A stretch of 64,000 nucleotides of DNA, from positions 31,000,001 through 31,064,000 of the forward strand of contig JBHGNT010000001.1 in NCBI GenBank assembly GCA_043228905.1, read 5' to 3'. Position 1 is the stretch's first letter. Each line of letters begins with the position of its first letter. Positions 12,480 to 55,354 of this stretch are shown here, piece after piece. The notes under the pieces are model-generated. The model made no database searches. It was given only the letters and a program-made list of their open reading frames with translations, and was not told the origin of the DNA. This stretch comes from Azolla caroliniana. Lineage: Eukaryota; Plantae; Polypodiophyta. A program made the position numbers and the translations under genes.

Positions 12480-13702
12480 TGTTGTGAAGATCCGTCAGTA
12501 GGCGCGGATCACGAGGCGGAACCGCCAGGGTTCTGAACCGGAAGGACTTGAAGTTCGCACCAAGCTTAGCGAGAAAGTATTTAGGATAGATTGAGAGAGA
12601 GAAAGATAAAGATAAGATAGAACGCTTGATTTTAGATCGAGAGAGAGATTAAGAACTCTTGACTTTAGATTTTAAGAACAAGGTATATCATCAAAAGGAT
12701 AACGAATTTTCTTCTTAATATTAATTTTGATTTAAAGTACAAAGCTTTTTTTTTATCCCAAAATAATCTCCATTGATCTTTTTCATTCCCTCTTTTATAG
12801 ATGCCCTCATGCATTTGAGGGTTCAAGACATGCATAAAATGCATGTTTGCCATTTGGCGCTCATGTATTACATGTGGTGCATGATAACCATGTCACTCAT
12901 TTTAGCTCTCATGTATGAGAATTTATATGTAAAAGTAAAATGATAGAAATATAAATTCAACTAAATGTCATGGCTTAGTGGTAAGCCTATTGACTTTTAA
13001 CTAGGAGGTGCAAGGTTTGAATCCTCACTTGTCGTCCTTGTATATATATATGTGATATTTATTTATTAATTTGGTCGTCGGATGTCGCCGGTTACCGTCA
13101 ATCGCCGCTGGCGTCGTATGCTGCGGTTACCGTCGATCGCCACTAGCGCTGTATGCTGCCGGTTACCGTCGGTCGCCGGCACCGCCGGAATGTCGGTTCC
13201 ATCGGCTTGCCGGCTTCGTCTCCGTCGGATAACGATTCCGCTGGATCATTGGTTGTCGGTGTGCCACCATCGCTTTGCCGGTTGCCGCCGGATCACCGGC
13301 TCCATCACCGGTCCGGTTTTGGTTGGCCAAAACCTTTACAAGTAGCTAGGCCACCTCCACTCTTAGTTCAAGTTACCTTGAACTCTCTATGGTCCACACA
13401 TAGACACAAAGATAATAACTTTTGCTCCACCTTATATATGGTGAGAGCCTTATTCGTCCAGTCTATGTGGGATATCTCATAATTTTCTCATTTTCTTTCG
13501 CAACTTCTTACCCACATAAGTTGACACTTAGATGTCCGTTTCTTATGTAGTAAAGTGCACCTCCTCAAGATCTTCTTCTTTTATACTAAGATATTAAACT
13601 TACTTAGAATTAGTATATTCACTATTATTGTTTTATATGATTGACACTTGATTTTGTACGTTTTATGTGATTTTCACACCATTGTCGAAAATCTTCACGA
13701 CA
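12480..13702 (-). mobile_element. Solo LTR (1223 bp) of the TGTCGTGAAGAT type
   Basis: Termini TGTTGTGAAGAT / ATCTTCACGACA; 4-bp TSD ACGT (12476-12479 / 13703-13706); host gag frame restored on removal. Confidence 0.9.
12964..13036 (+). other. tRNA-like sequence with Pol III A/B boxes inside the solo LTR, antisense to the LTR
   Basis: A box TGGCTTAGTGG at 12971; anticodon-like loop CTTTTAA; B box GGTTTGAATCC at 13014; stems decayed. Confidence 0.7.
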
Positions 13703-13986
13703 ACGTCGTCATAAACCATCATCGAAAGAGGAAACACAATGACGCTGAGCAAATAGACTATGTCTTTATTGTGGTGGACCGGGGCATATTGCAGTGAACT
13801 GTCTTCATAGGCCAAGAAGTCAGGTAAATCAAATAGTCATTATTACTAATAGTACTAAACCCGAGTCTATTCCATTAGGAGTGTCTGATAGTCCTAAAAG
13901 ACAAACCTATCAATCAAATTTGAAGTCCTTAGTCAACTGGAAGAATAGTTGAACGACTAAGTCCAGCCAAAATAGGAGTCGTTTCG

Positions 13987-14539
13987 TTGGATAGCCCTAG
14001 ATCTGTGCAAATTAGCAATGTCTTCCTAGCTCAAGTAACAATTAGTACTAAAATTAACCTTCGAATACATGTCTTAGCACTCCTAGATTCCATAGCCATT
14101 TCTTGCCTCATGGATAAGAATTTTTCCCAAGCTCATCAAATATCCCTAAGAAAACTCCCTTGCCCAACTTTTGTAATAGTCATTGATGGTCGCCCCATTG
14201 CTTCTAGAAATATCGTAAAAGAGTTAGAGCCGATTAGTGTTGTCCTAAATAATTTGGCATGTGTGGTATCATTTAATATAATTAATAGTCCAGAGCATCC
14301 AATTGTTTTGGGGTTACCATGGTTCGAATTACACAATCTGAACATAGATTGGACAATAAGAGAAATCAGGTATCGAGAATCTCGAGAACTACTCACAAGA
14401 TTTCAACTATTTCGCTACATTAATTGCATGAGGAAGGACGTAAAGAATCAATGTTTGTATTCGCAATATTAGTGAAACCTTCCAACATCGCTAAGGAGGA
14501 GTCAACAATTCAACTTCCAAAGAAGTATCATCATTACGC
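13987..14539 (+). pseudogene. Aspartic protease and linker of element D
   Basis: ALLDSIAISCLMD, VIDGRPI, HPIVLGLPWFELHNLNIDW. Confidence 0.88.
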
Positions 14540-15419
14540 TGTCGTAGTGTGAATCACACACTACGTGAAACATACCAAAGCCTCGGTGGTTCCCACCTGA
14601 TTCACACAACGATCCGGAGCCGAAAGGCATGAAACCGGTCAGAACTGGAAGGAGGAACCAGTGAGAACCGGATGAAGGATGGAATCGGTAAGGAGGAACC
14701 GGTGAGAAACGGTGTCGCGTTGTTACGCGTGTGCGTAGAGAAAGGGGCGGGACCACGGGGGTTTTGACCCGAAGAGAGAGAGAGATTTGTAGATACGCGG
14801 AGCGAGAAGGCGAAATATCGAACGTAACACTTGATTTCAGTAACAAGAGATTACAATGACAAGAGAACACGACTCTGACAGTTACAACCGACAAGGCGGC
14901 GATGGACCCGACACGGGGATCCTACTCACACACACAGACAGCACACGCTCGACACCTGGAAACAAAAAAAGGGGGAGAGCCTCTGCTGGAAGCGCACGGG
15001 CTGTCCACGAAGCAGAGGCGGCGAACTCCCGACCCACAGAGACCGACGACTGGACGAGATGAGAGAGCTCGACACTCAGATCTGCAGCAACACTTCGTCC
15101 TCCCTAGCGCGCGATCCCTTTCTCCCCTCTCTCTTCTCCCTTTTTATCCCCATCCTCCTGTCAATTTGCTTTATTCCCTATCCACCCCCCCCTGACAGAG
15201 ATACGCACAATCCCCCTAATAAATGTGTGCTGCTTAGTATTTACATCCACCGATTCGTGTACAAAATATCAAGTCACGCGTCCATCCGTGTAAGAGCTAG
15301 GTTATGCGCTTTATCTCCGATTCCTCCTATGGCCAATTTTCTTCACGACATCCATCCCCACCAAACCGCGCATCCACCGGTATGCGCCAGAGACAAGTAG
15401 ATACCGAAGAAACCCGGCC

Positions 15420-17240
15420 TCACTCGTTGGTCTCCGATTCTCTGCCGGACCCGACCTGATCGTCGTTGTTGCTCCCGCTCGCAGGCTCCGACTCGTCTTC
15501 GAACCACTTTTTGAATGCTTTGATCCGCTTTCCGGCCACCGGCACCGCTAACCGTGTCCCGTCGAGTTCCGCGAGGTGGTACGTGCCGTTATCATTCGCG
15601 CTCGTCACCGTCTAGGGCCCGAACCATCTCCTAACGAACTTTCGCACCGCCTTGTGCTGATTGTCGAGGCTGCTATCGTATACCAAGACCCAATCGCCTT
15701 CCTCGATCTTCTTTGGTCCCAACCGGTGCGTTCGGTTGAACCGGGTCTTGTTCCGCTCCCTTGCCACTCGCAGCTTTTCCTTCGCCTATATCACGTCCTT
15801 CGGCTTCCGCTCGAGTTGCCGAATTCGCGCCGCCAACAACTCCTCCCGGCTCATTTCGTCCTTTCAATCTACCGCCGCCCACGAAGAAACCGTCCATTCC
15901 ACCAACATGATCGACTTTTGTCCGTATATCAGCTCTGCCGGCATAAACCCTGTCACCAAACTGTGGGTAGTTCGGTCCGCCCATAGTGCGTAAGGAAGGA
16001 GTCGTGGCCAATTCCCGACCTGTCCTCCGCATGCACACACCAACACCTTTACGATAGGCCCGTGCCCCCGTTCTACCTTTCCGTTCGCCTCTGGATTGTA
16101 TGTTGTAGTGAGGGAGAGTTTGACGCCTAGCCGGTCGAACAACTCCTTAGCTTCCCGCGCATCCAGCTCTCCCCGGTCCGCCACGATCCTCCCGACGCAC
16201 CCGTACTAACACACTACTTCTTCGATCAGGAACCGGCATACCGCCGCGATTGTCTTGCTTTGTAGTGCACGACCTTCCACCTGGTTCATTAAGTCTTCCC
16301 GTGCAAGCACCATGTATCACATCTGTCCTACCCCCATCGGCATCGTCACCAAGTCTACCATCCACTTGAAATGAACCGTAGACGGGTAGGTCGGGTGTAG
16401 CTCGTCCCGGTGTCGGACTACGGAGTGCATCTGACAGCTTTCACAAGTCGTTACGAACCGATGCACGTCCTGGTACAACCCCGACCACCAATACTTTCCC
16501 TTAAGCTTCTCGAATGTGGCCCACGTTCCGCGGTGTTCGGCCCAGGGGCTCTCGTGAAATGCCGCCAACAGTCCCCCCTGTTCTTCTTTCTTTACCACTA
16601 CTCGGAGTGGGATGTCGCTTCTCTTCTTAGGGTGCCTACATATGCACCCGTCCCGTAGGAAGAATCGGTATGCCTTCTTTCGTATCCGGCTCGCCTCCTC
16701 TCTCGCCCATGTTGCGTCTGGCGCCATCGTCCGTAGGAACCTCCCGATTTGGAGCCACTGCCCGTCGTACTTGCTTTCGTCAAATTCATTAAGCGCCGGA
16801 GTGTTCCCTTCCCTCGTCGTTACGTTAGCCGACCCGAAGAAGTCCTCGCCGACTTCTTTGTCATCTGAAACCATGCCGTCTTCATTGTTGAACCTTGCCC
16901 TCGAAAGCATGTCGGCCATGGCGTTGTCCTTTTCGGAGATGTGCCGTATCTCCGGGTTCAGGGACTTAATGTACGCTATCCACCGGAGCATTGCTAGGTC
17001 CATCGTCGCGCGTTCGGAAACCATGCCGAGTATTGGCAAGTAGTCCGTCTCGATGATCACCTCCGTCCCAATCAAATAATCCTTGTCGGCCTTGACTGCC
17101 GAAACGAAACCCCAAAGTTCGCGCTTAACTTGGGCGTATCCTCGCTGCCGTTCGCTCAATACCTTCACCCCGAACCGGATCGGGAATCGTACGCTGTCCT
17201 CGTCCTCCTGACTGATTACCCATCCAATCCCAGTCGGGCT
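15420..17240 (-). pseudogene. pol: RNase H-integrase of element C
   Basis: YAQVKRELWG, ADMLSR, H-H-CESC zinc finger, ADRGE, YNPEANGKVERG; several stops. Confidence 0.9.
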
Positions 17241-17244
17241 GGTC

Positions 17245-18773
17245 GAGCCTCTTCCGCCTCACCAAGTCTACAATAGAGTCGTGGAACTCCCTCTTGGCGA
17301 TTCCCAGCACCTCCCGCAATGACAGCTCCACTCTGTGGTCCTTTCGATCTCGGTGCTCAACTGAAACCCCGTCTGCTTCTTTCCGTCCGGCGCGCCTGGG
17401 TTGCGGTCGGTTTCGGTCCGAACCGGGTCTCATACCTCTGCGGGGGCCGGCCCCTCCGGCCTTTCCTGCCCGTTTGTCCTCCACTAGAACCTCGTAGTTC
17501 TAGCAAGCGGCTTCCACGAAGCCCGTTTTCTCTTTGACCGGATCGTCCCAACTGGTGACCTCCTGGACCCGCTGTTCCGCGCGGTCCGCCTCTTCCTTCT
17601 TCAGCCGTACTCCGGAGAGGCCTTCTAACACTAGCGGCTAGAATCCGGAGTCCTTCGCCTTCCGGGTCTCATCACCCCTGACCCGAATTCCCGCCGACAC
17701 CGAGTAGTTGACGACTTCGACGTGCCGTGCCGCGGCCTCTTCCATCAACCTCTTCATTCCGCTTCGCCCCGTATTCAGTTCCAAGGCTCTCCGGGTCTCG
17801 CTCGCGTGCACCCGCCCGTTCCAGAGGTACACCACGTTGGTCCTGAGCGCGTCGGCGAAATCTACGCACTCCTTCCGAATGTGACTGATCGCGTCACACC
17901 ACATGCACCGCTGCCCAACCGGCGGCCTCCGGTCGCGAGGTTGTTCGCCGTTGTCTCTCTGGGCCTGTGCGATCTGCAGGTCGCGCACCATCTGTGTCAG
18001 CTCCTCCAGAGCCGCTCCTCCAGATGGGCCTCTGACCACGTCGTTCGATGCCGACCCCGAGTCTGGCCAGATTTGGGTCTCTTCCTTCCTACCGGCCGGC
18101 ACCGATACCGGCTCCTTAAGCTTCCTCCCCGGGACCGGCCCCGACCCCGACGAGCTTCCGTCGCTCGAATCGCGCCGTTTGTCAAAATGGCTGCAGACTC
18201 ATTTTACCACGGCCTAGTTTGCCGTGAGCCCTTCGTCCGTTTCCAATAGGGGACCCACCCTTTCCTTGTCGAGCGCGTCCACTGACTTGACAAATAGTAG
18301 TACTCGATTTGTTTCGAGCACTGTCCGGTCCAGCGTCGACAACCGCGCGAACCGTTTATCGAACTCCTGGAGGAGCACCGACGTGTTCCTCCCCTTCCTG
18401 GGGCTTTCCACCCACGCCATGAAGTCCCGCTTCGACAGCTGAAGCGAGTCGTCAAACCCATACTTCTTGAGGAGCTGCAGCTCGAACTCCTCCCAAGTCT
18501 GGCATCCGGCCAGCACCTCGAGCACCTCCGCGTGGATGCCCGACGTCACCACATGAGGGAATCCGGATAGCCCGGCGTCACCACCGGGATATCCCTCATG
18601 ATCATTTCGGCCCGGTAAGCCTCCAAATAACTTGTGGCGTCTTTCCCTCCAAAGCGGCCTATAGAGCCGACGATCGATTCAATGGCTCTGTCGAGGGTAC
18701 CCGTCCCTTCATGAGCGCTCACCAACCGGTCGACGACCACCGCCATTGCTTCTGCTAGCTCCGATCCCCTCAT
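17245..18773 (-). pseudogene. gag: Gag of element C
   Basis: MRGSELAEAM..., CMWCDAISHIRKEC; stops and frameshifts; ends at DLVRRKRL. Confidence 0.88.
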
Positions 18774-19542
18774 CTTTGGACTCCTCTGCCACCCCGTTCA
18801 CGTCAGGTTCACCAAATATGTCGCGTTGTTACGCACGTGCGTGGAGAAAGGGGCGGGACCACGGGGGTCTTGAACCGAAGAGAGAGAGAGAGATTTGTAG
18901 ATATGCGGAGCGAGAAGGTGAAATATCGAACGTAACACTTGATTTCACTAACAAGAGATTACAATGACAAGAGAACACGACTCTGACAGTTACAACCGAC
19001 AAGGCGGCGATGGACCCGACACGGGGATCCTACTCACACACACAGACAGCACACGCTCGACACCCAGAAACAAAACAAAGGGGGAGAGCCTCTGCTGGAA
19101 GCGCACAGGTTGTCCACGAAGTAGAGGCGGCAAACTCCCGACCCACAGAGACAGAAGACCGGACGAGAAGAGAGAGCTCGGCACTCAGATCTGCAGCAGC
19201 ACTTCGTCCTCCCTAGCGCGCGATCCCTTTCTCCCCTCTCTCTTCTCCCTTTTTATCCCCATCCTCCTGTCAATTTGCTTTATTCCCTGTCCACCCCCCC
19301 TGACAGAGATACACATAATCCCCCTAATAAATGCGTGCTGCTTAGTATTTACATCCACCGATTCGTGTACAAAATATCAAGTCACGCGTCCATCCGTGTA
19401 AGAGCTGGGTTATGCGCATTCTCTCCGATTCCACCTATGGCCAGTTTTCTTCACGACAACGGATGAAGGATGGAATCGGTAAGGAGGAACCGGTGAGAAC
19501 CGGATGAAGAGACAAATTTGTAAATAGAAGAAAAGATTGTTA

Positions 19543-19617
19543 CATGCATAGGGTAGGATTCAAACCCTGTACCTCCATGTTAACGATTTTTAAGCCTTAC
19601 CATTATACTAGCGTATT
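19543..19617 (-). other. tRNA-like A/B-box module in the G' LTR, antisense to the LTR
   Basis: Minus strand: TAGTATAATGG (19610-19600) then GGTTTGAATCC (19566-19556), followed by TTTT. Confidence 0.65.
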
Positions 19618-20086
19618 ATGAATTTTAAAGTTATACTAAACATTATCCCATGTAGATATTCTAGACATGCATGGTAGAAAAAATTATTCATGCATAGACA
19701 CTCGAGTTAAAAGAAAAGATGAGATAGGTGTCTTTTTGGCCGGAAGTGCTAGAAAACACCGAGAAAACCGACTCTAACGAGATCCGAAGCACCGCGGAAG
19801 GCATCCGGGAAGGTACGGGATGGGAGTGCCTCGTCGATAAGAATAGCATATACGCCCTATGTCAATTACATGAGGTATATGTGGACGAGAAGCGGCGACG
19901 CACGGAGGATGCGGTTGGACCATCGAAGACACCGGAGAGCTGGAACTCCAACGGAAGAGGGAAAGGAAAAACGATTCTGGCATTCAAGCTCGCCTCGGAC
20001 ATCAAACAACAAACGGACTTGAAAAAGGTGTTCGAGGAGAGAATCCTTGACAGCCGGGTAGATTTTTCGCTTCGGGAACTACTCGG

Positions 20087-20633
20087 TGTCGTGAAGAAAA
20101 CCGGCCATAGGCGGAATTGGAGAAAAGGGCGCATGGACCGGCTCTTACACAGATGGACGCGTGAATTGATATTTTGATATTTTGATATTTTGATATTTTG
20201 TACATGATTCATAAATGAATTGGCTGATGTAAATACTAAGTAGTACACATTTATTAGGGGATTGTGCGTATCTCTATCAGAACGGATAGGGAATAAGGCG
20301 ATTTGACTAGGGATGGGATCTATTTAAGGAAAAGAGAGAGGGGAGAGAGAAATATCGCGCATTGGAGAGGACGAAGTGCTGCTGCAGATCTGAGTGCCGA
20401 GCTCTCTCTTCTCCTCCGATTGTCGGTCTCTGTGGGTCGGGAGTTCGCTGCCTCTGCTTCGTGGACAGCCTGTACACTTCTAGCAGAGGCTCTCCCCCTT
20501 GTTTTTGTTTCTTGGAGTCGAGTGAGTTCTGTCTGTGTGCGTGAGTAGGATCCCCGTGTCGGGTCCATCGCCGCCTTGCCGGTTGTAACCGTCAGAGTTT
20601 GTAATCTCTTGTTATTGTAATCAAGTGTTCCGT
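20087..20633 (+). repeat. C-family LTR, truncated by insertion of element I
   Basis: Reverse-complement match to the C LTRs; starts TGTCGTGAAGAAAA after TCGG inside G' gag. Confidence 0.88.
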
Positions 20634-28600: not shown

Positions 28601-28798
28601 AGCTCCGCCTAAGCTTGATTCTCCAATGTCCAAAGTTTTGGCTCTGATGCCGACCTCGCCGGACTCGTTCCGAACCTTTGATCACTTCCCTTCCAATTCT
28701 CGACCTTCGCTCGGTCGGTCTTTCTCCCCATGTAAAAGAGGGTGGCTTGTTCCGCACCCTCTCTCGTATCGGCACCTTCATGCTGATTCTGGCCCCGA

Positions 28799-38062: not shown

Positions 38063-38166
38063 AGAGGGCTGCCGAGGCGTGGGGCCGAGACAGTCCGGAC
38101 ACTCGGGAAAGACCCCACGACTGTACGATAGGTAGGAAATTTTGCTTCTCCAACAACGGAGGGTGT

Positions 38167-41100: not shown

Positions 41101-41883
41101 GGGTGTGTCGGGAAGATAGTGGCTGATCGCGGGGAGTTGGACGCCGAAGAGGCCAAGGAGCTGTTCGACCGGCTAGGAGTCAAGCTCTCGCTCACCACTG
41201 CATACAATCCGGAGGCGAATGGGAAGGTGGAGCGCGGACACGGACCGATCGTCAAGGCGTTAGTTCGGGCATGCAGAGGTCAAGTCGGGAACTGGCCGCG
41301 GCTGTTGCCTTACGCGTTGTGGGCGGACCGAACTACGCACAGTTCGGTAACCAGATTCATGCCGACAGAGCTCATGTTTGGGCAGAAGCCGATCATGCCG
41401 ATGGAACGTACGATCTCCTCCTGGGCAACCGTAGACTGGAGAGACGAGATGAGTCGGGAGGAACTGTTGACGGCACGCATACGGCAGCTCGAGCGAAGAC
41501 CGGAGGACGTGGAGCAGGCTGCGGAAAAGCTTCGGGTGGCCAGGACGAGGAACAAAGCCCGGTTCGACCGGACGCACCGGCTCCGACCGAAGAAGATCGA
41601 GGAAGGTGACTGGGTGCTAGTCTACGACAGCAGCCTCGAAAACCAGCACCGAGCGACACGGAAGTTCGCAAGAAGGTGGTTCGGGCCTTACGTGGTACAA
41701 AGCGCCAACGACAACGGGACGTACCATCTGGCGGAACTCGACGGTACGAGAATGGCGATACCGGTAGCTGGGAAGCGGATCAAAGCGTTCAAGAAGCGTC
41801 ACGACGACGAGCCGGATCCGGTTGACCTGGACCGGGACGACGAACGATCCGAAACCGAAGAAGAACCGACGGGCGGGGAATAA
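38167..41883 (+). pseudogene. pol: RT-RNase H-integrase ORF2 of element F
   Basis: PFLDDVPIKG, VDTS, ADRGE, WFGPY; stops at 39355, 39712 and 40252; 357-bp internal duplication. Confidence 0.93.
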
Positions 41884-43164
41884 AGGTTGGACCGGTTTTC
41901 TTCGTCCCAACTCAATTTGGCGCATGCCGGTGGATGCGCGGTTAGGTGGGGGCGGATGTCGTGAAGAAAACCGTCCACAAGCGGAATCGGTGCACCGGAG
42001 CGTAGGAACCGGCTCTTCATACACGTGCGCCTTATGTTGTACATAGAAGATCCTCGGTAGGTAGGAAGTTAATAGGAAACGGCTCCTTCCTTGCCTATAA
42101 AAGGAGGGAGACAAGGAGGGGAGAGGGGATCGCGAAATAAGAGAGGACGAAGTGCTGTCGGATTGTGGGCCGAAGGCTTCTCTCTCTTCCAAACTCCATA
42201 GCTTCTTTCTGTGCAGGTTTCGGGAGGCTCGCGCTGCTCTGAGGAATGCTCGAGTGCTTCCGGCAGCACCTCCAACCTACTTCTTTCTTTCGGTGCGTTT
42301 ACGAACAGGCATCGGCATCTATTCGCCGGCCTATTCGGTTGTAACAAACTTCGTGTTTTTGTTGTTTGTCTCTGTTAATATTCACATACATTCCTTCATG
42401 TCTCTCTGTGTTGGTTTCCCGCTCGCGTCTTCGTGTCGAAGGGTCGTGTCCCTGTGGATCTACGCTCGCACCTAGTGGACCTCTTTCCTTCTCCTTTCTC
42501 TCTTGCTCTTCGGTGCAAGACCCCCGAGGTCCCGCCTCATTCCACGCATCCGCGAGGAATACCTCGACACCATAAGATGGTGGACAAAGTGGGCACAAAA
42601 CGCGGCGGAACTCCAGTTGCTACGGGCAGACGTGGCAAACCGGCGGAAGGAAGGAGATGATTGTTATACGTTGACTTCTGAGGACTTCACCGCCATACGG
42701 GACGAGCTGGCCGACAACTTCCAAGTCCTGGCGGATGAACAACTGGCGCAGGTCAGGCAGCTCGTAGCTCAGCTAGACGATGATAGGCTGGACGCTCAAA
42801 TCCAGTTTGAAAGCTACGAGCGGTCCCGAGTTCGGGAAGAAAAAGCACGGGAAGGGGCAACGGTTAACCTTAGTGATGAGGAACCGTCACCGGCGGAGTC
42901 CCAACACGGAACCAGTCAACCGGAGACCACTACGACGAAGGGAGCAACGACGGAGACGCCGGTGTCAGAGCAACAAACGGAGGAGCAGTCGCAGCAGCCA
43001 TCAACAGACCCGTCGCAACAGACATCAACAGAGCAGCAACAACAACAACAACAACAACAACAACCAATTCCAGATGAACCATTGGAGACTCTCGAACAAA
43101 GCATTCTGGATATTTTGGACAAAGAATAGCAAGGGTCGGTTGTGGATTCGACGTACAAGGTACT

Positions 43165-43181
43165 GTCCCACGGGCGTGCCA
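43165..43181 (-). promoter_or_regulatory. PBS complementary to tRNA-Arg(TCT)
   Basis: TGGCACGCCCGTGGGAC 2 nt from the LTR end; one base short of the recalled tRNA end GTCCCACCGGGCGTGCCA. Confidence 0.75.
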
Positions 43182-43618
43182 TGTGTTACCGGTCGGCAAA
43201 GGAGTCTAGAGTGGGAAACGGAGAGTTATTTAAGTAGTAGGAATGTGGTTGTAATTAAGCTATGAGTGTGGACGGACGGACCGGAATCGGTATGCCCTTC
43301 CGGATCCGGACCGATCCCGAGCAGATGCGGATGGCACCGTTTTGTAATACAGACCGGAAACCTATTTAAAGGCCCGGATACAATGTAATGAATAACGGTT
43401 AATTAATAAAATCTTAGCGTTGTTATCTCTCTGTGTTAATTGTCGTTCTGTCTTAATTGTTATATCTTACGCGTGTGATTATGAAAGATGATCATGCTAA
43501 GTAACTTAATTAAGTCGGATTAAGCGTTGAGTCTAATCCGGTTGCTGTAACACCCTTTGGTGAAGTGTCTTCCGTAGACACCCTGTGTTAGGCCATTGTC
43601 CGGCCCTAAGAGTTAACA

Positions 43619-44188
43619 GATCGTGAAGATCACCATCGGCTCCACTATCTTTGGGTCAGCGCATCCTATTTCTTTCGATGTAAATGCAAATGCTCTCCCA
43701 TGTCGCTCTAGCATCCCACGGAATCGTTCTTCTTCATTCTTTAATAGGAACCCACCTCCATCGATCCGAAGTTTCTTCCGGGTCTCATCCATGAAGGCAT
43801 GTCCGATATCCATGGACTTCCGAAATGTCGGATCCCCCGAGACTTCTTTCCTCTTTTGTTCGCTATCTGCGGGTAACGGTCTCGCGGCCGGTTTCACATT
43901 CTTCTCCACGGTCTTGTATTTCGTACTTACCATTGCTTCTTCTTTGCGGAGCGCATCTGACCCCATTTTCACAATGATCTCGTACATCTCGACCGATTCC
44001 ACCGGGACTACTCGGTCTCCCTGGCTTGTATCTTCCGCGAGCTCTTCAAGCCGTTGTAGCGTGCTCCCATAGAACACTTCTTCGACTATTCCCACAATTT
44101 CTTCATCTTCTTTTATAATTATTGATGCCGACCGTAACTTATCCTCCACTTTTCGGTATTCTTTCTTCATTCCTCCGGTTACGGCCAT
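43619..44188 (-). pseudogene. pol: Pol N-terminus of element G
   Basis: VSTKYKTVEK...EIGCADPKIVEPMVIFTI, homologous to ORF2 of E and F. Confidence 0.88.
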
Positions 44189-44304
44189 GTACGTAGATGC
44201 CTCATCCGACCCGATTCGTACTTGTCTTGCTCCGAGAATTTTCTTCCTGTGTGGGGTATCAGGGCTTCTCGGACTATCACTTCCCCACTCCGCAACAATC
44301 CGCT

Positions 44305-46346
44305 CTAAAAATCCATCCTTGTTTGGGACAAGAGCTCTGTCTTGTTCCTTTCATGATTTACCGGTACCGTTAGGAATTGGACGGATTTCCCTCCATTTTG
44401 GCTCTGAATTTGTGCAAAAGCCGCATCGCTATCGAGCACCTTCGTCTCCATCCGTGAAGCCGTGATAAAGGGTTTCCTGAGGATCACGGGGTGTGAGACC
44501 TCGTCTTATACGAAGAAATTTTGGTCAATCTCGACATCCTCGATCTTCACCATCACATCCGGACAAGCCGCAAATAGATCTTCCGTTGCTTTAGTGGCCG
44601 CCCGGATCTTCCATCCATGATTGGTGTTAATAGGCCACTTCCCCTTCAGTAGAACTCCTTAGACATCAAATTGATCTCCGATCTGTGATCAATCAATGCT
44701 AGCACGGGCTCTTTGATGTTGCTGATTCGGACCGAAGTCTTAGTGGTTGCACGTGCCCAATGTGGCTTTGTATAGTGGAAATTCAGAATCTCGTCCTCCA
44801 CTTCGGTGTTATTCATCAGAACGGTATTTGCATTCACCATCGACGCATTTTCCTCCGTAGTTTGTCTTTTTCTTTTCACGAGATCCACAAGAAGATCATG
44901 GAACTCTTTTTTTGTTATTCCGAGTAGTTTCCAAAGCGAAAAATCTACCCGGCTGTCAAGGATTCTCTCCTCGAACACCTTTTTCAAGTCCGTTTGTTGT
45001 TCGATGTCCGAGGCGAGCTTGAATGCCAGAATCGTTTTTCCTTTCCCTCTTCCGTCGGAGTTCCAGCTCTCTAGTGTCTTTGATGGTCCGGCCGCATCAT
45101 CCGTGCGCCATCGTTTCTCGTCTACATACACTTCATGCAATTGACATAGCGCATGCGAGCTATTCTTGTCTACGGGGCACTCCCATCCCATAGCTTCCAG
45201 GATACATTCCGCAGCGCTTCGGATTTCATCATGGTCGGTTTTCTTCGAAATTTCTAGCACTTCCGGCCAAAAAGATGCCTTTGCTGCAGAAGACTCCCCC
45301 ACACGTATTCCCGCAGTTGTCGCATAATTATTTTTCGCCGCGATCTCCTCCTCTAAGACCTTCTTCATGCCGTCTTTTCGGAAGTTTGGTCGGAGTGGCT
45401 TTCGAGAATCCATCGAATGAATCTGATTTCCCTCGTAGTATATAAGATCCCGTCGTAGCGTTTCCTTGTGCTCGTCGCAATCCCTCCGATCATGTTTGGT
45501 GCTATCGCACCATACGCACCGACGGTCCATATACTTGGAACTTGTGGCACAGTCATCCGACTTCTTCACCATCACGATTTTTAGATTCTCCATCTCCTTC
45601 AGCAACTGTTCCACCGTACTTGCGTTGATTCCCTTATCGGTCGTAGCTTCCCAAGCCCGCGGTTGATGGTCTTTCGATCCGGATCTCGGTTTCGGAATCG
45701 GTTCTGAAACCCTCTTCTCTTCGTTGGCAAGCCATTGCCCCCTCTTTGTGTAATTTGCGACGATATCCCGCACGCTTTCCCATGTTTCAGTGAGGCCACT
45801 CTCAGTAGTCGTATCCTCTAGCAACACTCCAAGATCCTTCAAGTCCCGGACATCTACGGCTCGTAAGAACATGATAACTTTGTCCGGTGCAAGGATAACT
45901 TGATCTCTCGTGGACAACCTCCCGGACCGACTTTCGAATGCCGAAAACACATCGAGGACCTTCATCCCCTTGTCCGGCGTTTCCACCCAATCCTCAAATC
46001 CTATCCGCGTTGCCTTGGAGGAGTCCTCAATAGCGAACGTGGTCTTTAGCGCCTCTTCAAACGCTTCCCACGTCGGATTTTGTTGTCGTAGCCCGTGGAT
46101 ACTTCCTTGAAGCCCGTCGGTAGCCACCCGGTTGAAGGATGTCACTTGCAGTCCTTCCGAAATCCCGCACCGTATCATTTCCGCCTTGTAGTCCCGAAGA
46201 TAGCGTGATACGTCCTTTCCGTTGAATTGCCTGATCCGTTGCACGAGCCGCTCCACTGCCGCCGCTATCTCCGACATCGCACGTTGTTCTTGAAGCATCC
46301 GCTCGAACATCATCACCATGTTGTTAGCCTCCAGTTGATTTTCCAT
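44305..46346 (-). pseudogene. gag: Gag-protease of element G
   Basis: IRQFNGKDVSRYL, CVWCDSTKHDRRDC, ALIDHRSEINLMS; frameshift near 44646; ends RMDF*. Confidence 0.9.
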
Positions 46347-47252
46347 CTCCTTGCCACCCGTGTTCACGTCGGGTTCACCACTTGTGTCGTGCCTTTTGGC
46401 GCCGGTGTCGTGAAGAAAACCGTCCATAAGCGGAATCGGCGCACCAAGGCGTGGGAACCGGTTCTTCACGCGCGCGCGCTCCAAGTTGTACATAGAAGCG
46501 AATTAGGAGGATAATCGGCGGGAACGGGCCCTAACACACGTGGAGACAAAGACTGCGCGAACAGTCTTGTCGGTCGCGCGCGCGAGCTAAGGAACTGTAC
46601 GAATCGGCGGCGTAACTACGCGGATGCGCGAAGAACGGAGCGGATCCCTGTTCGAAAGGGACAGGGAATAAAGCTGACATGACGGCCTGCTCGTCGGCCT
46701 ATATAAGGAGCAGGAAAGAGCTGTTGCAGGGATCTGGGGGCTGAGAGGACGAAGTGCTGTCGGACCGTTTCTGGACGCTCCTCCCTCTGTCTCCTTCCTT
46801 CTTGAGCTCCATAGCTTTCTGTGCAGGGTTCCGAGGAGGCTCGCGCTGTTTCGAGGAACGCCCGAGTGCTTCCGGCAGCACCTCGGACCTGCTACCCCCC
46901 CCCCCCCCTTTTGTGCGTCGAAGCGAACAGGCATCAGCATCTGTTCGCCGGCCTGTTCGGTTGTAACCAACCTGTGCCCCATCGAGGGTTGTAGTCGTGT
47001 TAGCCATTTTGTTAATATACATATTTAGTCATTCGCATCTGTCTGTGTCGGTGTCTGTTCGCGTTCTCCGTGCTGAAGGGCCGTGTCCCTGTGTATCCCC
47101 GGTCCTGCGTAGCCGGTTCTCTCTCTTTCTCCTCCCTCGCTTGCTCTTTGGTTCGAGACCCCCGTGGTCCCGCCTCGATTCCACACGCACTTGCGTAATA
47201 TCTCGACATCTTTGGTGAACCCGACGTGAAGGAGGCGGCAGAAGAGCAGAAG

Positions 47253-49379
47253 ATGAGGGGGTCGGATCTTGCAGAGGCCATGGCTTCGGCCGTGGATCGA
47301 ATTGTAAATGCGCGCGAGGGCACCGGTGCCCTCAACAGAGCTATTGAGGCGGTCGTCGGCACGATCGGCCGGTTCGATGGGAAGGATGCCACGAAGTATT
47401 TGGCGTCCTACGGTGCAGAGATGCTGATGCGGGACATTCCGGAAGAAAGGCGTCTTGGCGGATTTCCCCGAGTGGCGATGCCGAGCATCCATGCGGAGGT
47501 GCTCGAGGTGCGGGCGGAGAGCCGTACCTGGGAGGAGTTCGAAGGTCGGCTCCTAGAGAAATACGGGCTGGACGACGCGCTCCGGCTTTCGAAGCGAAGG
47601 TTCATGGAATGGGTGGAGTCCCCGGGGAAGGGAAGAAACGCGTCGGCACTCCTCCGGGAGTTCGAGGAAAACTTTGCGCGCCTTTCGGCGCTCGACCGAA
47701 CCATCCTGGACACGAGCCGGGTCTTGCTGTTTGTCAAGTCGGTCGACGAGCGGGATCGGGAGCACGTGGGCCTCTTGCTGGAAACCGAAGACGGGCTCAC
47801 TACCGACTGGGCGGCTGTCAAGAAAGTCTGTGGCCGTTTCGACAAACGGCGAGAATGGGCGGATAACGGGGCAGCCGGGTCGGGCTCGGTCGCAGCAAGG
47901 AAGCTCGAACCAGCGCCACAGGTGCGAAAGGAAGAGACCCGAGAGTGGTTGGAAACCGGTTCGGCTTCGACCGGCGTAGTCAGAGGCTCGACCGGAGGAG
48001 CGGCGCTGGAGGAATTGACGAGGGCGATAAAGGACCTCCAAATCGTGCAAGCCCGAAGGGAAGGTGGCGAACCGGCTCGTGACCGACGGCCGGCGGCAGG
48101 AAACAAGTGCATGTGGTGCGATGAAGTCGGCCACATTCGGAAGGACTGCGGCGACTTCGCGGAGGCGCTGAGGAACAGGGTGGTGTACCTGTGGGAAGGA
48201 CGGGTGCATGCCAGCGACACCCGAAGGGCCCTGAGCCGAAACGACGGGCGAGGTGGTATGAAAAGGTTGATGGAAGAGGCGGCGGCCCGACACGCGGAAA
48301 CCGTCCACTACTCGGCGTCGGCCGGCATTCGAGTCGGGGGCGGCGAGGCCCGAAGGGAAAGCAAAGCCGGATTCTGGCCGACGATGCTGGAAGGCCTTGC
48401 CGGTGCAAGGCTTAAAAGGGAGGAATCGGACCGTGCGGAGAAACGGGTACGGGAGATGACCGGGTGGAGCGACCCTGTCGAGGAAAAGACGGGCTTCGTG
48501 GAAGCCGCTTGCCAGAACTACGAGGCCCTGGTAGAAGAGAAGCGGGTGGGGAAACCCGGGACGACCGGGCCCTCACAACGATACGAGACCCGGTCCGGGC
48601 CACGACGGGACGAAGCCGGCGGGGCCGGTACGCAAGATAAACCCCAGAAGGGCGGGTACCGTCTGGGGACGGAGATAGAAAGGACCACGGACTTACGAAA
48701 GGTCCTGGAGGAGCGGATCCTCGACAGCAAGGTGGAGTTGTCGTTACGAGAGGTGCTGGGAATCGCCAAGAAGGAGTTCCACGACTCCATCGTGGACTTG
48801 GTGAAACGGAAGAGGCTGTCAACGGAGACAGAACCGGAAAGACCGGTGGAAGTGCGGACGACGCACCTAGACGACATGGCGCTGGGAGACGAGTGGGCGG
48901 AAAGCCACTATTCGAGACCACACTGGGCCCGAGCGACCACGGAAACCCCGGTGAAGATCGGCGATGTCCAGGAACCGGCGATAGCTTTGGTGGACCATGG
49001 GTCGGAGATCAATTTGATGTCCATGGACTTCTATAAGAAGGGCAAATGGCCGATCAACACCAAGCACGGGTGGAAAATAAGGGCAGCAACGCGCGCCACC
49101 GAGGAACTGCACGGGGCCTGTCCGAATGTGCGAGTCAAGATCGGCGACGTCGAGATTGACCAGCACTTCTTCGTGCAGGAGACGTCTTCGCATCCGGTCA
49201 TATTGGGAGAGCCGTACATCACGGCGGCGCGAATGGAGACCAAGGTGCTGGACAATGGTTCGGCCTACGCGAGGGTCAAAAGCCAAGACGGGCGCCATTC
49301 GGTCCAGTTTCTGACGGTACGGCCGAACCACGAACGTAACCGCGACTCCCTCGGTTCCGAAAACCGAGAGGATTTTTAG
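47253..49379 (+). CDS. gag: Intact Gag-protease ORF1 of element E
   Basis: Uninterrupted ORF (GTG at 47226, first ATG at 47253); CCHC knuckle; ALVDHGSEINLM...ILGEPY. Confidence 0.95.
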   Translation: MRGSDLAEAMASAVDRIVNAREGTGALNRAIEAVVGTIGRFDGKDATKYLASYGAEMLMRDIPEERRLGGFPRVAMPSIHAEVLEVRAESRTWEEFEGRLLEKYGLDDALRLSKRRFMEWVESPGKGRNASALLREFEENFARLSALDRTILDTSRVLLFVKSVDERDREHVGLLLETEDGLTTDWAAVKKVCGRFDKRREWADNGAAGSGSVAARKLEPAPQVRKEETREWLETGSASTGVVRGSTGGAALEELTRAIKDLQIVQARREGGEPARDRRPAAGNKCMWCDEVGHIRKDCGDFAEALRNRVVYLWEGRVHASDTRRALSRNDGRGGMKRLMEEAAARHAETVHYSASAGIRVGGGEARRESKAGFWPTMLEGLAGARLKREESDRAEKRVREMTGWSDPVEEKTGFVEAACQNYEALVEEKRVGKPGTTGPSQRYETRSGPRRDEAGGAGTQDKPQKGGYRLGTEIERTTDLRKVLEERILDSKVELSLREVLGIAKKEFHDSIVDLVKRKRLSTETEPERPVEVRTTHLDDMALGDEWAESHYSRPHWARATTETPVKIGDVQEPAIALVDHGSEINLMSMDFYKKGKWPINTKHGWKIRAATRATEELHGACPNVRVKIGDVEIDQHFFVQETSSHPVILGEPYITAARMETKVLDNGSAYARVKSQDGRHSVQFLTVRPNHERNRDSLGSENREDF

Positions 49380-49440
49380 AGAGGACTGCCAAGGCGTGGG
49401 GCCGCGACAGTCCGGATGCTCCGGGAAAACCCCACATCTG
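49370..49440 (+). promoter_or_regulatory. Putative -1 ribosomal frameshift signal (G GAT TTT TAG plus GTGGGG/CCCCAC stem)
   Basis: The -1 frame is open for 42 codons into ORF2; conserved in A, F and G. Confidence 0.75.
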
Positions 49441-49501
49441 CACGATAAAACCGTGTACAATAGGTAGGAAATTTTGCTTCTCCGACAGCGGAGCATGTAC
49501 G

Positions 49502-52500
49502 ATGGTCGGCATCGCCGGCCGAGAGAAAACAAAGACGGAGGGGAGACTTCGGGCGTGCGGAGTTCTCGGCCCTGACGAAGAAATCGACGGAGCCGTGGAG
49601 GCAGTCTCCTTCGACGACACCTTGGGAATGCTGGGGAAGGTAGTCGAAGAAGACCTTAACGAAGACCGGACGATACCGGTATGTTCCGAAGAAATGTACG
49701 AAGTCATCGCGGACTTCGGTCGAGGGCTCGAGTCGGAACGGACGGCCCGAGTTAGCACCAAGTACAAGACTGTGGACCGGAAGGTGAGGCCAGTTGCGGC
49801 GCCCTTACCGGAGGGCAGCGAGTCGCGAATCAAAGGGGTTGCATCGGACCCCAGCTTACGAGATCCGGCCTGCATAGGACACACCTTCACCAACGAGACG
49901 CTCCGGGAGCTCAAAATCGGTGGGGGCGGGCTCCTACTACCGGCGGAGGAAGACCGGTTTCGGAGAATGCTCGGAAGGCACGGGAAAGCCTTCGCATTCT
50001 CACCGGAGGAAATCGGGTGCGTAGACCCGACGATCGTAGAACCGATGGTGATATTCACAGTACCGCATGTACCGTGGAATCTCAAGCCAATTCCGGTTCC
50101 GAGAGCTCACATCCCGAAGTTGATGGAGCTGTTGAAGCAGAAAGTTGATATGGGCATTCTCGAGCCGTCGAGCGCCCCGTATTCAAACCGATGGTTTACC
50201 GTACCAAAGAAAAACGGATCATTGCGCTTCATTCAGGACCTGCAGCCGGTCAACAGAGTGACCATTCGGAACGCAGGGATCGGACCGACCATAGACAAGT
50301 TCGCGGAGGCCTTCGCCGGAAGGTCGATTTACTCGGTCGGTGATCTATACTCAGGGTACGACCAGTTCCAGCTAGCCGTGGAGAGCAGAGACATTACGAC
50401 GATGCGAACTCCCCTCGGCCTAGTGCGGATGTGTACGCTGCCGCAAGGAGGGACCAACTCGGTGGCCCACATGGTGAATGCAATGACCAAGGTGCTGAGG
50501 GACTGCATCCCGGACATCACCATGCCGTTTCTAGATGACATCCCGATCAAGGGATGCCCGGTAGAAGAGAAGGACGAGACGATCGGGCCGGGCGGATGCC
50601 GGCGGTTCGTGATGACGCACATCGACGACTGCGAGAAGGTGCTGCAAAGGCTAGAGGATGCAAGGCTCACCTTCTCAGGGGAGAAGTCAGCCTTCGGGCA
50701 GTCGGAAATCATGGTGGTCGGACATTTATGTGGACCATATGGCCGGAAACCGTCTCCGGCAAAGGTAGAAGCCATCTCCGCGATGAAGCCTGATTGCAGC
50801 TCGGTCACGGAAGTACGAAGATTCTTGGGAGCATGCGCCTTCTACCACATATGGATCCCGCATTACGCGCACGTCGCGGAGCCGCTGTACGGATTGTTGA
50901 AGAAAGGGTGAAGATTCGAATGGCTTAACAAGCACACGGAGTCGGTCCGGAAGCTAAAGGAGGCTCTTTCGGCAGCACCGGCGCTCCGAAAGGCCGTCTA
51001 CAGGAAGGGCACCCCAGTGTACATAACGGTTGACACGAGTCCGACCGGAATCGGGTGGGTCGTCAACCAAGAAGACGAGGACGGCAATCGGTTTCCGAAC
51101 CGATTCGGCGCGAAGGTCCTCAGTGAGCGGCAGCGAGGATACGCCCAGGTTAAACGCGAACTCTGGGGTATCGTTTCGGCGGTGAAGGCCGACAAGGACT
51201 ATCTGATCGGGACAGAGGTAATCATAGAGACGGATTGCATGCCGATTCTCGGCATGGTTTCCGGATGCGCGACGCCGGACCTGGCAATGCTCAGGTGGAT
51301 AGCGTACATCAAGTCCCTAGACCCGGAAATACGACACATTTCCGGGAAAGACAACGCCATGGCCGACATGCTTTCAAGGGCGAGATTCGATGACGAGGGC
51401 GGCATGGTTTCGGAGGACGAAGAGGTCGGCATGGACTTCTTCGAAACTGCGTATGTAACAACCGACGGAACAAGCACTCCGGCGCTTAACGACTTCGACG
51501 CGAGCAAGTACGACGGGGAGTGGCTGCAGATCGGTGGGTTTTTGAAGACAATGACGCCCGATGCGTCGTGGACGAAGGACGAGGCCAACCGGATCCGGAA
51601 GAAAGCGTACCGGTTCTTTCTCCGGGATGGATACTTGTGGAAGCACCCGAAGAAGAGGAACGGCGTCCCGCTCCGGGTGGTGGCAATGAAGGAAGATCAG
51701 GAGGAGCTGCTAGCAGCCTACCACGACAGCCCTTGGGCTGGACACCGTGGAACATGGGCTACGTTTGAGAAACTGAAGGGGAAGTATTGGTGGCCGGGGC
51801 AGTACCAGGACGTGCATCGGTTCGTGACAACTTGCGAGAGCTGTCAGATGCACTCCATAGTCCGACATCGAGACGGGCTTCACCCTACGTACCCTCCGGC
51901 CATCCATTTCAAATGGATGGTAGATCTGGTAACGATGCCAATGGGAGTAGGACAGATGCGGTACCTGGTCCTAGCGCGGGAGGATCTGACGAACCAGGTG
52001 GAAGGCCGGGCCCTTCCGAACAAAACGACCGCGGCCGTATGTCGGTTCCTAATCGAGGACGTGATATGCCGGTACGGGTGCATCGGGAAGATCGTGGCTG
52101 ACCGAGGGGAGTTGGACGCCGAAGAAGCCGCGGAGCTGTTCGACCGGCTGGGAGTCAAGCTCTCGCTCACCACTGCGTACAATCCGGAGGCGAATGGAAA
52201 GGTGGAGCGCGGACACGGACCGATCGTCAAGGCGTTGGTTCGGGCATGTGGAGGCCGAGTCGGTAACTGGCCGCGGCTGCTACCTTATGCTTTGTGGGCA
52301 GACCGGACTACGCACAGTTCGGTAACCGGGTACATGCCGACGGAGCTCATGTTCGGCCAGAAGCCGATCATGCCGATGGAACGGACGATCTCCTCGTGGG
52401 CAACGGTCGACTGGAGGGACGAGATGAGCCGGGAGGAGTTGTTGGCCGCGCGTATACGACAGCTCGAGCGGAGACCGGAGGACGTGGAACTGGCTGCGGA

Positions 52501-52858
52501 GAAGCTCCGGGTGGCGAGGACAAAGAACAAAGCCAGGTTCGACCGAACGCACCGGCTCCGACCGAAGAAAATCGAAGAAGGTGACTGGGTGCTCGTCTAC
52601 GACAGCAGCCTCGACAACCAGCACCGAGCTACACGGAAGTTCGCACGAAGGTGGTTCGGGCCTTACGTGGTACGGAGCGCCAATGACAACGGGACATATC
52701 ACCTGGCGGAACTCGACGGCACGAGAATGGCGATACCGGTTGCAGGGAAGCGGATCAAAGCGTTCAAGAAGCGACACGACGACGAGCCAGACCCGGCTCT
52801 CCTAGTCAGCAGTGACGAACGATCCGAAAACGAGGAAGAACCGACGGGCGAGGAATGA
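49502..52858 (+). pseudogene. pol: RT-RNase H-integrase ORF2 of element E with a single CGA>TGA stop at 50909
   Basis: ORFs 49502-50911 and 51017-52858 are in the same frame; FLDD, HHCC, DDE and GPY motifs; no chromodomain. Confidence 0.95.
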
Positions 52859-54238
52859 AGACGGGCCGGTTTTCTCCGTCCCAACTCTCTTGGCGCATAC
52901 CGGAGGATGCGCGGTTAGGCGGGGGCGGATGTCGTGAAGAAAACCGTCCATAAGCGGAATCGGCGCACCAAGGCGTGGGAACCGGTTCTTCACGCGCGCG
53001 CGCTCCAAGTTGTACATAGAAGCGAATTAGGAGGATAATCGGCGGGAACGGGCCCTAACACACGTGGAGACAAAGACTGCGCGAACAGTCTTGTCGGTCG
53101 CGCGCGCGAGCTAAGGAACTGTACGAATCGGCGGCGTAACTACGCGGATGCGCGAAGAACGGAGCGGATCCCTGTTCGAAAGGGACAGGGAATAAAGCTG
53201 ACATGACGGCCTGCTCGTCGGCCTATATAAGGAGCAGGAAAGAGCTGTTGCAGGGATCTGGGGGCTGAGAGGACGAAGTGCTGTCGGACCGTTTCTGGAC
53301 GCTCCTCCCTCTGTCTCCTTCCTTCTTGAGCTCCATAGCTTTCTGTGCAGGGTTCCGAGGAGGCTCGCGCTGTTTCGAGGAACGCCCGAGTGCTTCCGGC
53401 AGCACCTCCGACCTGCTACCCCCCCCCCCCCCCCCCCCTTTTGTGCGTCGAAGCGAACAGGCATCGGCATCTGTTCGCCGGCCTGTTCGGTTGTAACCAA
53501 CCTGTGCCCCATCGAGGGTTGTAGTCGTGTTAGCCATTTTGTTAATATACATATTTAGTCATTCGCATCTGTCTGTGTCGGTGTCTGTTCGCGTTCTCCG
53601 TGCTGAAGGGCCGTGTCCCTGTGTATCCCCGGTCCTGCGTAGCCGGTTCTCTCTCTTTCTCCTCCCTCGCTTGCTCTTTGGTTCGAGACCCCCACGGTCC
53701 CACCTCGATTCCACACGCACTTGCGTAATATCTCGACACCGGATCGTTGCGTGAGTCTGGTGGGACCCACTGAGGTTTTGGACTAGGAGAAAAGAAAATT
53801 CTAAGGCAATGAAGAATATGAAATATGTTGTAAGAAAGAAAGATATGAAAACTCGTGAATCCCATGAGTATAATGTATTAGTGAGTACTCAGATTAAGAG
53901 AGAAAAATAGTTAGCAAATTCATGAATCCCACGATTATATTATATTAATCCCCCTTGTAAAATAAGCAACAACCCCCCATACATCTTGCTCTCCTCCTTA
54001 TATAAGGATGGAAGAGGCTAATCATAGCTTCATGTTTTTTCTAAAGTGTTCATGCACACTAAATGTGCATGAGTTGCCTTTTTACACTATGCTTTTATTT
54101 CCTAAATATAGTGCTCATGCTCGCTAGATGTGCACGAGTCATTTTTTATTGGTGTACATTTTTCTTATAAATAAAGTATTCACGCATTCTAAAAAATAAA
54201 GGTCTTATATGTATTAAATCTATATTTAGAATACTTAG

Positions 54239-54312
54239 GATAAGTTAGTATAATGGTAAGGTTGGGGTTTGTCTACATGGAGGTACAAGGTATGAATCTT
54301 GCCCTATGCACG
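54239..54312 (+). other. tRNA-like A/B-box module in the G LTR, antisense to the LTR
   Basis: TAGTATAATGG at 54246, degenerate B box GGTATGAATCT at 54289; homologous to 19543-19617. Confidence 0.6.
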
Positions 54313-55350: not shown

Positions 55351-55354
55351 ACGT

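Follow-up and report, generated by a model that had tools for sequence, protein, structure and literature searches.

We analysed a 64,000-nt stretch of the Azolla caroliniana genome (the window; contig JBHGNT010000001.1, positions 31,000,001 to 31,064,000) and identified four LTRs that carry a tRNA-like unit with an A box and a B box (modules 1–4). Module 1 (12964..13040, forward strand; A box 12971-12981, B box 13014-13024 with C56T) lies in a solo LTR of the DUF4100-type Gypsy family F1 (12480..13702, reverse strand), which is bounded by an ACGT duplication and has its TATA at ~12800, ~170 nt from the A box. Between module and TATA, the sequence contains a CATG-rich cluster with GCCATTTGGCGC (12829..12896, reverse strand), which BLAST found to be common to families F6 and F8 and which we take to be a likely enhancer. 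Module 2 (subfamily F2a; 19535..19617, reverse strand; A box 19610-19600, B box 19566-19556 with C56T) is held by a forward-strand LTR (14540..19727) that is deleted downstream of the module and split into two parts (14540-14712 and 19459-19727) by element C. Module 3 (subfamily F3; 54239..54311, forward strand; A box 54246-54256, B box 54289-54299) lies, according to LTR/internal mapping, in the 5′ LTR of a family F2/3 element (53739..54414, reverse strand), ~240 nt from the TATA at ~54006. The interior of this element was pushed away from its LTR by element A and resumes at 46405->43620, where the LTR tip, a tRNA-Trp-type PBS and the start of gag/pol are found (43620..46405, reverse strand). 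Elements A (46406..53738, forward), B (35281..42569, forward) and C (14713..19458, reverse) are related DUF4100-type Gypsy elements with GC-rich LTRs and no module, and serve as internal controls. Module 4 (chromovirus family F4; 10425..10493, reverse strand; A box from 10486, B box 10443-10433), which is absent from the first-pass annotation of this DNA, differs in sequence and sits inside the 5′ LTR of a chromovirus-type Gypsy element (10402..10808, forward strand; TATA at 10589); after this LTR lies a PBS-like site of non-tRNA type, which is complementary to the R region.

The first-pass annotation had placed A and B boxes at 12971/13014 (+), 19610/19566 (−) and 54246/54289 (+); we found all of them there, and mapping of the three LTRs bore out the reported antisense orientation. 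The common GGAGGTRCARGG that it described does stand before the B box in modules 1, 2 and 3, and two of the three have a TTTT terminator as reported: a T4 run lies ~22 nt downstream in module 2 and a T-run downstream of module 3, with no T4 terminator near module 1. The invariant C56 of the B box is T in all three, leaving each B box damaged, and module 3 additionally carries T55A. In module 4, C56 is intact and a T4 directly follows the B box.

The A/B spacing of 43-45 nt is the layout of a type 2 Pol III promoter, and modules in the family LTRs scored 19.5-30.9 bits. Using a two-box scan trained on host tRNAs, we obtained three matches of at least 20 bits in the window (modules 1, 2 and 4), module 3 being too damaged to reach this threshold. 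The same threshold gave 0.1 matches per shuffled window (30 shuffles); the modules are therefore not a product of chance. An Infernal/tRNAscan-SE-type check, suggested by the first-pass annotation and run here as ARAGORN and Rfam, produced no tRNA call at the module sites (ARAGORN 0 tRNAs, Rfam no tRNA match), and 0.8-2.8 of the 7 acceptor-stem pairs are left in the modules. The modules thus lack the cloverleaf with acceptor stem of a functional tRNA gene.

The suggested tRNA origin was borne out. Module 1 has a tRNA-Arg-like anticodon arm, and tRNA-Arg was the best donor match for F1, with 0/100 shuffles scoring as high; this comparison covered only 13-15 tRNA types and assigned F1 alone. Consensus folding yielded a 3-bp T stem as the only RNA fold in common; a hand-written cloverleaf on alignment A1, possibly off by one in register, was 39% paired, below shuffles. 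On sequence grounds, the module is derived from a tRNA gene that lost its cloverleaf and retained mainly the two promoter boxes. The anticodon arm of module 4 is unrelated to those of modules 1-3, and the chromovirus module matches the F1/F2/F3/F5/F7 group at 10-14 of 31 anticodon-arm positions. At least two separate captures of tRNA units took place, and three or more are probable.

Carriers are Ty3/Gypsy elements in RT-RNase H-integrase order, with paired LTRs, a PBS and a target duplication; they encode gag, RT, RNase H and integrase, measure 6.4-8 kb and have their own TATA; the shortest family measures ~2.8-3.5 kb. Modules occur in both LTRs, in U3. Among 5′ LTRs picked by their PBS, 66/76 carried an antisense module (F2/3 34/38, F1 32/38), and four of the five inspected LTRs without one hold deleted module remnants. 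Because the module is thus a family LTR trait with a fixed place, the first-pass annotation's own ground for doubt, a sporadic distribution, falls away. Genome-wide, we found 1,094 copies with a perfect B box and 0 in a reversed control; the first 30 of the 1,094 matches all lay inside LTRs, in antisense (30/30). The chromovirus module, which sits at the 5′ end of the LTR in a carrier with a chromodomain, gave 1,142 genome matches. Summed over four exact patterns, LTR-borne tRNA-type promoters number at least about 3,100.

In families F6 (L240) and F8 (L309), the TATA is preceded by two antisense modules and followed by one sense module, all pointing outward from it; sense modules occur only in this downstream position, in these two families. 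In our family census (47 LTR pairs plus hand-read solo LTRs), the module was lacking in families A, B and C, six Copia elements and one chromovirus-like family of three, and some module-less families are young. The F1 pol is 72% identical to that of element A, and the F2/3 pol 56-58%. Judging from these sequences, A/B/C may have lost the module or F1 may have gained it by LTR exchange; the tree fits either. No look-alike DNA was found in the other genomes compared.

We compared conservation of the boxes with that of their surroundings. Between F1 and F3, identity was 0.71 in the A region (shuffles 0.52) and 0.83 in the B box (shuffles 0.47), versus 0.39 in the spacer (shuffles 0.45) and 0.58 upstream (shuffles 0.59). 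Between subfamilies, boxes and spacing are thus retained, with spacer and flanks down at shuffle level; the spacer measures 18-19 nt in 165/165 modules, a length range preset by the search. C56 is a CpG hot spot, yet deeply diverged families have kept it: among 1,992 exact-pattern copies, 589 have C56T and 309 have G57A, intact C56 being the commonest state. The expected CpG loss toward the tolerated G57A accordingly failed genome-wide, although by eye, among the first 100 matches listed, G57A seems fixed in some subfamilies and C56T abundant in others.

Within families, the boxes decay like the flanks. At the B-box CpG, decay outpaces that of the average LTR CpG and runs toward the damaging allele (F1: 13 C56T and 3 G57A of 45), and most copies are therefore unprotected. 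In subfamily F2c, 81% of 16 copies have G19A in the A box. C56T was present in both LTRs of 7/26 pairs, three of them 98.6-99.5% identical, indicating that transposition went on in copies whose B box was broken. In a paired-LTR test, inherited versus post-insertion changes stood at 12:17 compared with 176:332 (p=0.55, not significant), with post-insertion counts inflated by a poorly aligned downstream flank; 2/28 pairs (one duplicate, one at 76%) were excluded, and some modules may have been passed over by the pair finder.

Such neutral-looking decay, together with amplification of lineages with damaged boxes and the success of module-less sister families, would be expected if tRNA or SINE heads had fallen into U3 long ago and were simply carried along, outward orientation being left only because inward modules disturb the promoter. 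We consider this improbable: boxes and spacing outlive a spacer and flanks that have reached shuffle level, the CpG hot spot is retained across deeply diverged families, and several captures of unrelated origin have the same position and polarity. Moreover, none of 30 motif-picked loci (the first 30 of 1,094 matches) was a free SINE copy with its own target duplication and tail, which goes against the SINE source considered in the first-pass annotation.

The U3-R of HIV-1 contains a tRNA-Lys3-like sequence, complementary to tRNA D and T arms, that matches the primer tRNA. An antisense module likewise makes the genomic RNA complementary to tRNA arms, so that its 3′ end would bind the primer tRNA and aid initiation or strand transfer. 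A precedent comes from Ty3, whose bipartite PBS has a half in U3 that is complementary to tRNA D/T arms and pairs with the primer tRNA, as described in PMC5371799. Annealing of this kind would account for U3 position, antisense polarity and D-/T-loop conservation, and in two intact F1 copies the primer tRNA-Trp paired second best (−48 and −51 kcal/mol versus −54 for tRNA-Arg); among 15 tRNA sequence types it ranked second for F1 and third for F3. However, F2a, F2c, F5 and F7 have the same Trp-type PBS with tRNA-Trp outside their top four, chromoviruses have a module although their PBS is not of tRNA type and is complementary to the R region of the element itself, and the sense modules of F6 and F8 would be unable to anneal. 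The Ty3 and HIV-1 sequences match the primer tRNA; the majority of the modules here show no such match, and one of the carrier lineages is without a tRNA PBS. We consider a role in priming quite improbable.

Ty3 also offers the model of a module that draws integration of kin to Pol III start sites. One nested insertion (L162) lies 4 nt upstream of an A box, but its site is an NCGN word, the target found at insertions generally (at least 153/200 LTR junctions). Across 154 modules not picked by their flanks, a junction script, which missed L162, found one upstream junction (−104) and six downstream (15-271 nt), with no pile-up at the Pol III start site. Ty3-type targeting was rejected on this count, and we regard a landing-pad role as very improbable.

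The modules could instead be Pol III genes whose functional product is a short antisense RNA (~70-100 nt, two hairpins), such as one that regulates the element's own RNA or serves small-RNA pathways as decoy or substrate. In 129/132 F2a/F2c/F3/F5 modules, a T4 lies no more than 40 nt from the B box (median 22-24 nt); in F4 and F6a it comes straight after the box. Folding z scores reach −4.3 (F5), −5.0 (F4b) and −2.7 to −3.2 (F1), and a 3′ hairpin between variable region and trailer (z<−2 in 46/66 F1, 3/4 F7 and 11/20 F2c modules) could explain the conserved GGAGGT. TATA-like words occur at −36..−22 in at least 94% of copies in 7/8 subfamilies, a weak signal against an AT-rich background. Foamy viruses make Pol III miRNAs from A/B-box units in the LTR of an autonomous retroelement, according to PMC3993851; those units encode expressed pre-miRNA hairpins, whereas the Azolla modules are tRNA-derived, antisense and without a conserved RNA product. 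F1 has a T4 in only 9/107 modules (T4 is often missing from host tRNA genes too, 12% of 88), F2a and F3 fold no better than shuffles, folds vary from lineage to lineage and conservation is lacking in the middle of the RNA. We consider an RNA product rather unlikely.

What these data present is a unit of tRNA origin, placed in U3 and oriented outward, that lost its cloverleaf and retained its boxes and spacing across diverged lineages. At a little short of even confidence, we propose that it is a self-carried TFIIIC/Pol III site that would act as a barrier or promoter opener for the element. An A-box/B-box unit in U3 of both LTRs, facing away from the TATA in two distant Ty3/Gypsy lineages, would bind TFIIIC with or without Pol III and, once bound, would keep the element's Pol II promoter open against silencing. 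We infer TFIIIC binding, any transcription and the anti-silencing effect from the features described above. Both daughter LTRs derive their U3 from the 3′ LTR of the parent, so a broken box could stay hidden for one round and be selected against only afterwards, which may explain mutant young copies beside long-term retention. Module presence in 66/76 LTRs, box retention, C56 persistence, the second lineage's own module, the bracketed TATA and the lack of a common fold support a barrier; module-less sister families and transposed copies with broken B boxes argue against a strict need, and the conserved terminators and hairpins of some families suit an RNA product better. In yeast and animals, TFIIIC-dependent barriers are formed by tRNA genes and by ETC sites that have a B box only, as summarized in PMC12409998. 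Like these A/B or B-only sites, the modules stand near Pol II promoters and heterochromatin (PMC12409998, PMC9540200), but the former are fixed host loci in yeast and animals and the latter predicted sites borne by mobile elements. The sections of a plant-barrier review drawn on here name no TFIIIC barrier in plants (PMC9540200).

Known LTR-borne Pol III promoters differ in direction and carrier. Cassandra TRIMs, the parallel drawn in the first-pass annotation, are plant LTR elements with a Pol III promoter in the LTR; as presented in PMC7215508, they are non-autonomous and their 5S-derived promoter drives element RNA. A parallel in function is not supported, because the carriers here (6.5-8 kb) encode gag-pol and the module faces away from the element. 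Closer in origin are Helenus TRIMs and TRIMp3, whose LTRs both contain tRNA-derived sequence with an A box and a B box. Helenus elements measure 311-1,263 bp and are non-coding, and their Pol III promoter is proposed to make template RNA (Kojima 2024, PMC10886601). The Azolla carriers, in contrast to non-coding elements of ~1 kb, are 5-8 kb gag-pol elements with their own TATA (plus a 2.8-kb derivative), the module faces away from the element and several captures coexist; a Helenus/TRIMp3-type promoter driving the element itself was rejected on the antisense orientation in 30/30 copies (the first 30 of 1,094 matches). The same source reports that many Repbase LTRs contain tRNA-like parts, of which, in its account, only TRIMs were followed up, and expects autonomous partners of TRIMs to use Pol II promoters (PMC10886601).

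It is possible, if somewhat doubtful, that autonomous plant LTR retrotransposons captured tRNA genes on several occasions and made them into portable TFIIIC boundary elements that flank, and in some families bracket, their own Pol II promoter. These observations address two open questions: how LTR elements keep promoter activity inside methylated TE clusters, and whether TFIIIC barriers exist in plants. The genome supplies natural controls in related families with and without the module, in young copies whose boxes are either intact or broken, and in layouts that are single or bracketing. TFIIIC occupancy and tRNA annotation could also be reshaped by the LTR-borne tRNA-type promoters, of which there are at least about 3,100. 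If the boundary reading is true, the modules would constitute a cis-acting counter-silencing device, would also have spread TFIIIC sites by the thousand across the genome, and would be the first plant barrier of the tDNA type.

All three tRNA-like A-box/B-box modules proposed in the first-pass annotation, at 12971/13014 (+), 19610/19566 (−) and 54246/54289 (+), were confirmed at these coordinates, each antisense to its own LTR. They lie among nested LTR retrotransposons of a 523-Mb genome; Pfam domains in the window comprise reverse transcriptase (RT), RNase H, integrase and DUF4100 gag, and one Copia element is also present. Module 1 is housed in a solo LTR of the F1 family, and modules 2 and 3 in LTRs of a single family, F2/3, whose internal regions are 88–96% alike. 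Among named organisms, Riccia, Calypogeia and Adiantum have relatives of the family RT, which fits a seed-free plant as the likely host. The B box carries C56T (tRNA numbering) in all three modules, with T55A additionally in module 3, and neither ARAGORN nor Rfam called a tRNA in any of them. Using a two-box scan trained solely on host tRNAs, we obtained three window matches of ≥20 bits versus 0.1 in shuffles, and a fourth module emerged at 10486 (−). The cloverleaf is lost (0.8–2.8 of 7 acceptor pairs; consensus fold of three pairs), and the host tRNA closest to the F1 module is tRNA-Arg.

The host's genes for tRNA-Lys, tRNA-Trp, tRNA-Ile and tRNA-Arg form long tandem clusters (C5:17.99 Mb, C8:17.80 Mb, C16:5.0 Mb and C2:20.11 Mb), and just 12% of 88 sampled have TTTT ≤25 nt downstream. 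A weak Rfam tRNA-Sec-like match with a B-box-like word lies at 56330–56407 (−) (24 bits, E = 1.9). Between 22700 and 33750, tandem repeats and long low-complexity ORFs, neither with a Pfam match, occur within non-autonomous elements sharing LTR ends. DUF4100-type Gypsy elements show 4-bp duplications at NCGN words, most commonly ACGT, at no fewer than 153 of 200 LTR junctions in the loci, a CpG-centred target preference seen in the window at 12480, 13702, 14713, 46406, 54414 and 55351; the ACGT at 55351–55354 is flanked by two head-to-head LTRs.

Among LTRs chosen by primer binding site (PBS) and gag start, independently of the module, 34/38 from F2/3 and 32/38 from F1 carried it antisense ≤900 nt from the PBS, with an additional sense match in two F2/3 loci. 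The ten misses comprised four deleted remnants, one truncated LTR and five that appeared by BLAST to be interrupted or deleted. Eight paired-LTR elements fetched whole had the module in both LTRs flanking gag-pol. Genome-wide, exact patterns matched 1,094 perfect B boxes, 589 with C56T and 309 with G57A, while each reversed-pattern control gave zero. The first 30 perfect-B-box copies were all antisense within F1 or F2/3-type LTRs; the old SINE raised in the first-pass annotation found no counterpart here, with no free SINE copy among the 30. In three loci (L276, L341, L334), the U3 segment with the module is tandemly duplicated. F5, a derivative of ~2.8–3.5 kb with an intact module and no detected pol (L343, L344, L319, L326), has LTR pairs 99.5–100% identical and has been active very recently.

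Between subfamilies, the boxes outlasted their flanks. In inter-subfamily pairs among 165 distinct modules, 70–87% of the A region, 77–98% of the ten bases preceding the B box and 81–93% of the B box were kept, figures that are partly circular because detection relied on A/B motifs, although the PBS-picked set indicates that the motif does not pick out a minority. The anticodon-arm spacer was at shuffle level (0.35–0.39) for F1 or F5 versus F3, as was the upstream flank (0.58–0.60). RNase H–integrase identity to A, a related element without the module, was 72% for F1 and 56–58% for F2/3; this comparison gave no branching order for the fork uniting A/B, C, F1 and F2/3.

Within families, the proportion of inherited to post-insertion changes was the same for the boxes as for their flanks (26 LTR pairs, p = 0.55). 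C56T occurred in both LTRs of seven of the 26 pairs, three of them very young; the B-box CpG decayed more quickly than other LTR CpGs, in the C56T direction, and F2c has lost A-box G19. Single copies are therefore unprotected, and one transposition round needs no intact box. As U3 derives from the parent's 3′ LTR, box mutants would be exposed to test only one round later. That the module is a passive relic is unlikely; within-family decay leaves unexplained the persistence of a hot-spot CpG and of the spacing across deeply diverged families. At several LTR CpG sites, including the B box, decay strongly favours one strand (G→A as read along the element), unlike at internal CpGs, where it is balanced.

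Module 4 occupies the 5′ end of an LTR from a chromovirus (a relative contains a chromodomain); its type recurs in 29 further copies, with 1,142 genome matches to its pattern and none to the control. Its anticodon arm has only 10–14 of 31 positions in common with the F1/F2/F3/F5/F7 group, whose members have 15–27 in common, and F6 and F8 modules are related to neither. This chromovirus family (also L099 and L100) lacks a tRNA PBS: the sequence following the 5′ LTR (10809–10818) is complementary to part of the element's own R region (10627–10635), the arrangement known from self-priming Tf1-type elements. A generic scan of non-tRNA loci gave 32 other matches; context was judged for nine, of which eight were LTR modules, antisense in U3 and upstream of a TATA-like box. 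The ninth was a chance match inside pol. In F6 (L240) and F8 (L309), two antisense modules precede the TATA and one sense module follows it, so what the modules share is an orientation pointing away from the Pol II promoter, not antisense polarity as such. Among 47 LTR pairs surveyed, six Copia elements, six A/B/C-type elements and one three-member chromovirus-like family had no module. LTRs with the module are AT-rich (GC 0.32–0.41; 6–12 CATG words), whereas those without are GC-rich (0.52–0.58; 0–1), which suggests two promoter strategies. A CATG-rich cluster with GCCATTTGGCGC, containing RY-, E2F- and YY1-like words, lies between module and TATA (window 12829–12896; L240:4677–4732; L309:7230–7320) and is common to F1, F6 and F8 despite otherwise unlike LTRs. 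LTR-borne tRNA-like modules are real, genome-wide and convergent.

The retained parts are those that TFIIIC recognizes, the B box being the site it binds with high affinity. Outward polarity would turn the TFIIIB side to the CATG-rich cluster and TATA, 100–240 nt from the module. tRNA genes and B-box-only sites act as TFIIIC-dependent barriers in yeast and animals (PMC12409998); plant tDNA flanking features follow PMC13437025, and PMC12789967 offered nothing pertinent. On these grounds, namely the parts kept, the known barriers and the polarity, the tentatively preferred reading, at somewhat below even chances, is a barrier or promoter opener that the element itself carries. The main rival, an RNA product, is doubtful: TTTT stands at a fixed distance in 129/132 F2/F3/F5 modules but in just 9/107 of F1, and strong hairpins in F5, F4b and F1 are absent from F2a and F3. 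Annealing of the module in element RNA to primer tRNA, Ty3-like (PMC5371799), would account for polarity but appears to fail in most subfamilies and in chromoviruses, and is quite improbable. A landing pad for integration is very improbable.

Searches of mainly open-access literature turned up no account of such an architecture for the LTRs of autonomous Gypsy elements in plants; related families may be listed in the Helenus supplements. The LTRs of Helenus TRIMs likewise contain tRNA-like sequence, but these elements are short and non-coding, and the tRNA-like part is proposed to serve as their own promoter (PMC10886601). Cassandra uses 5S (PMC7215508), and foamy viruses produce Pol III miRNAs from the LTR (PMC3993851). 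The LTR modules of A. caroliniana extend this theme of Pol III promoters within LTRs, with a function predicted from sequence.
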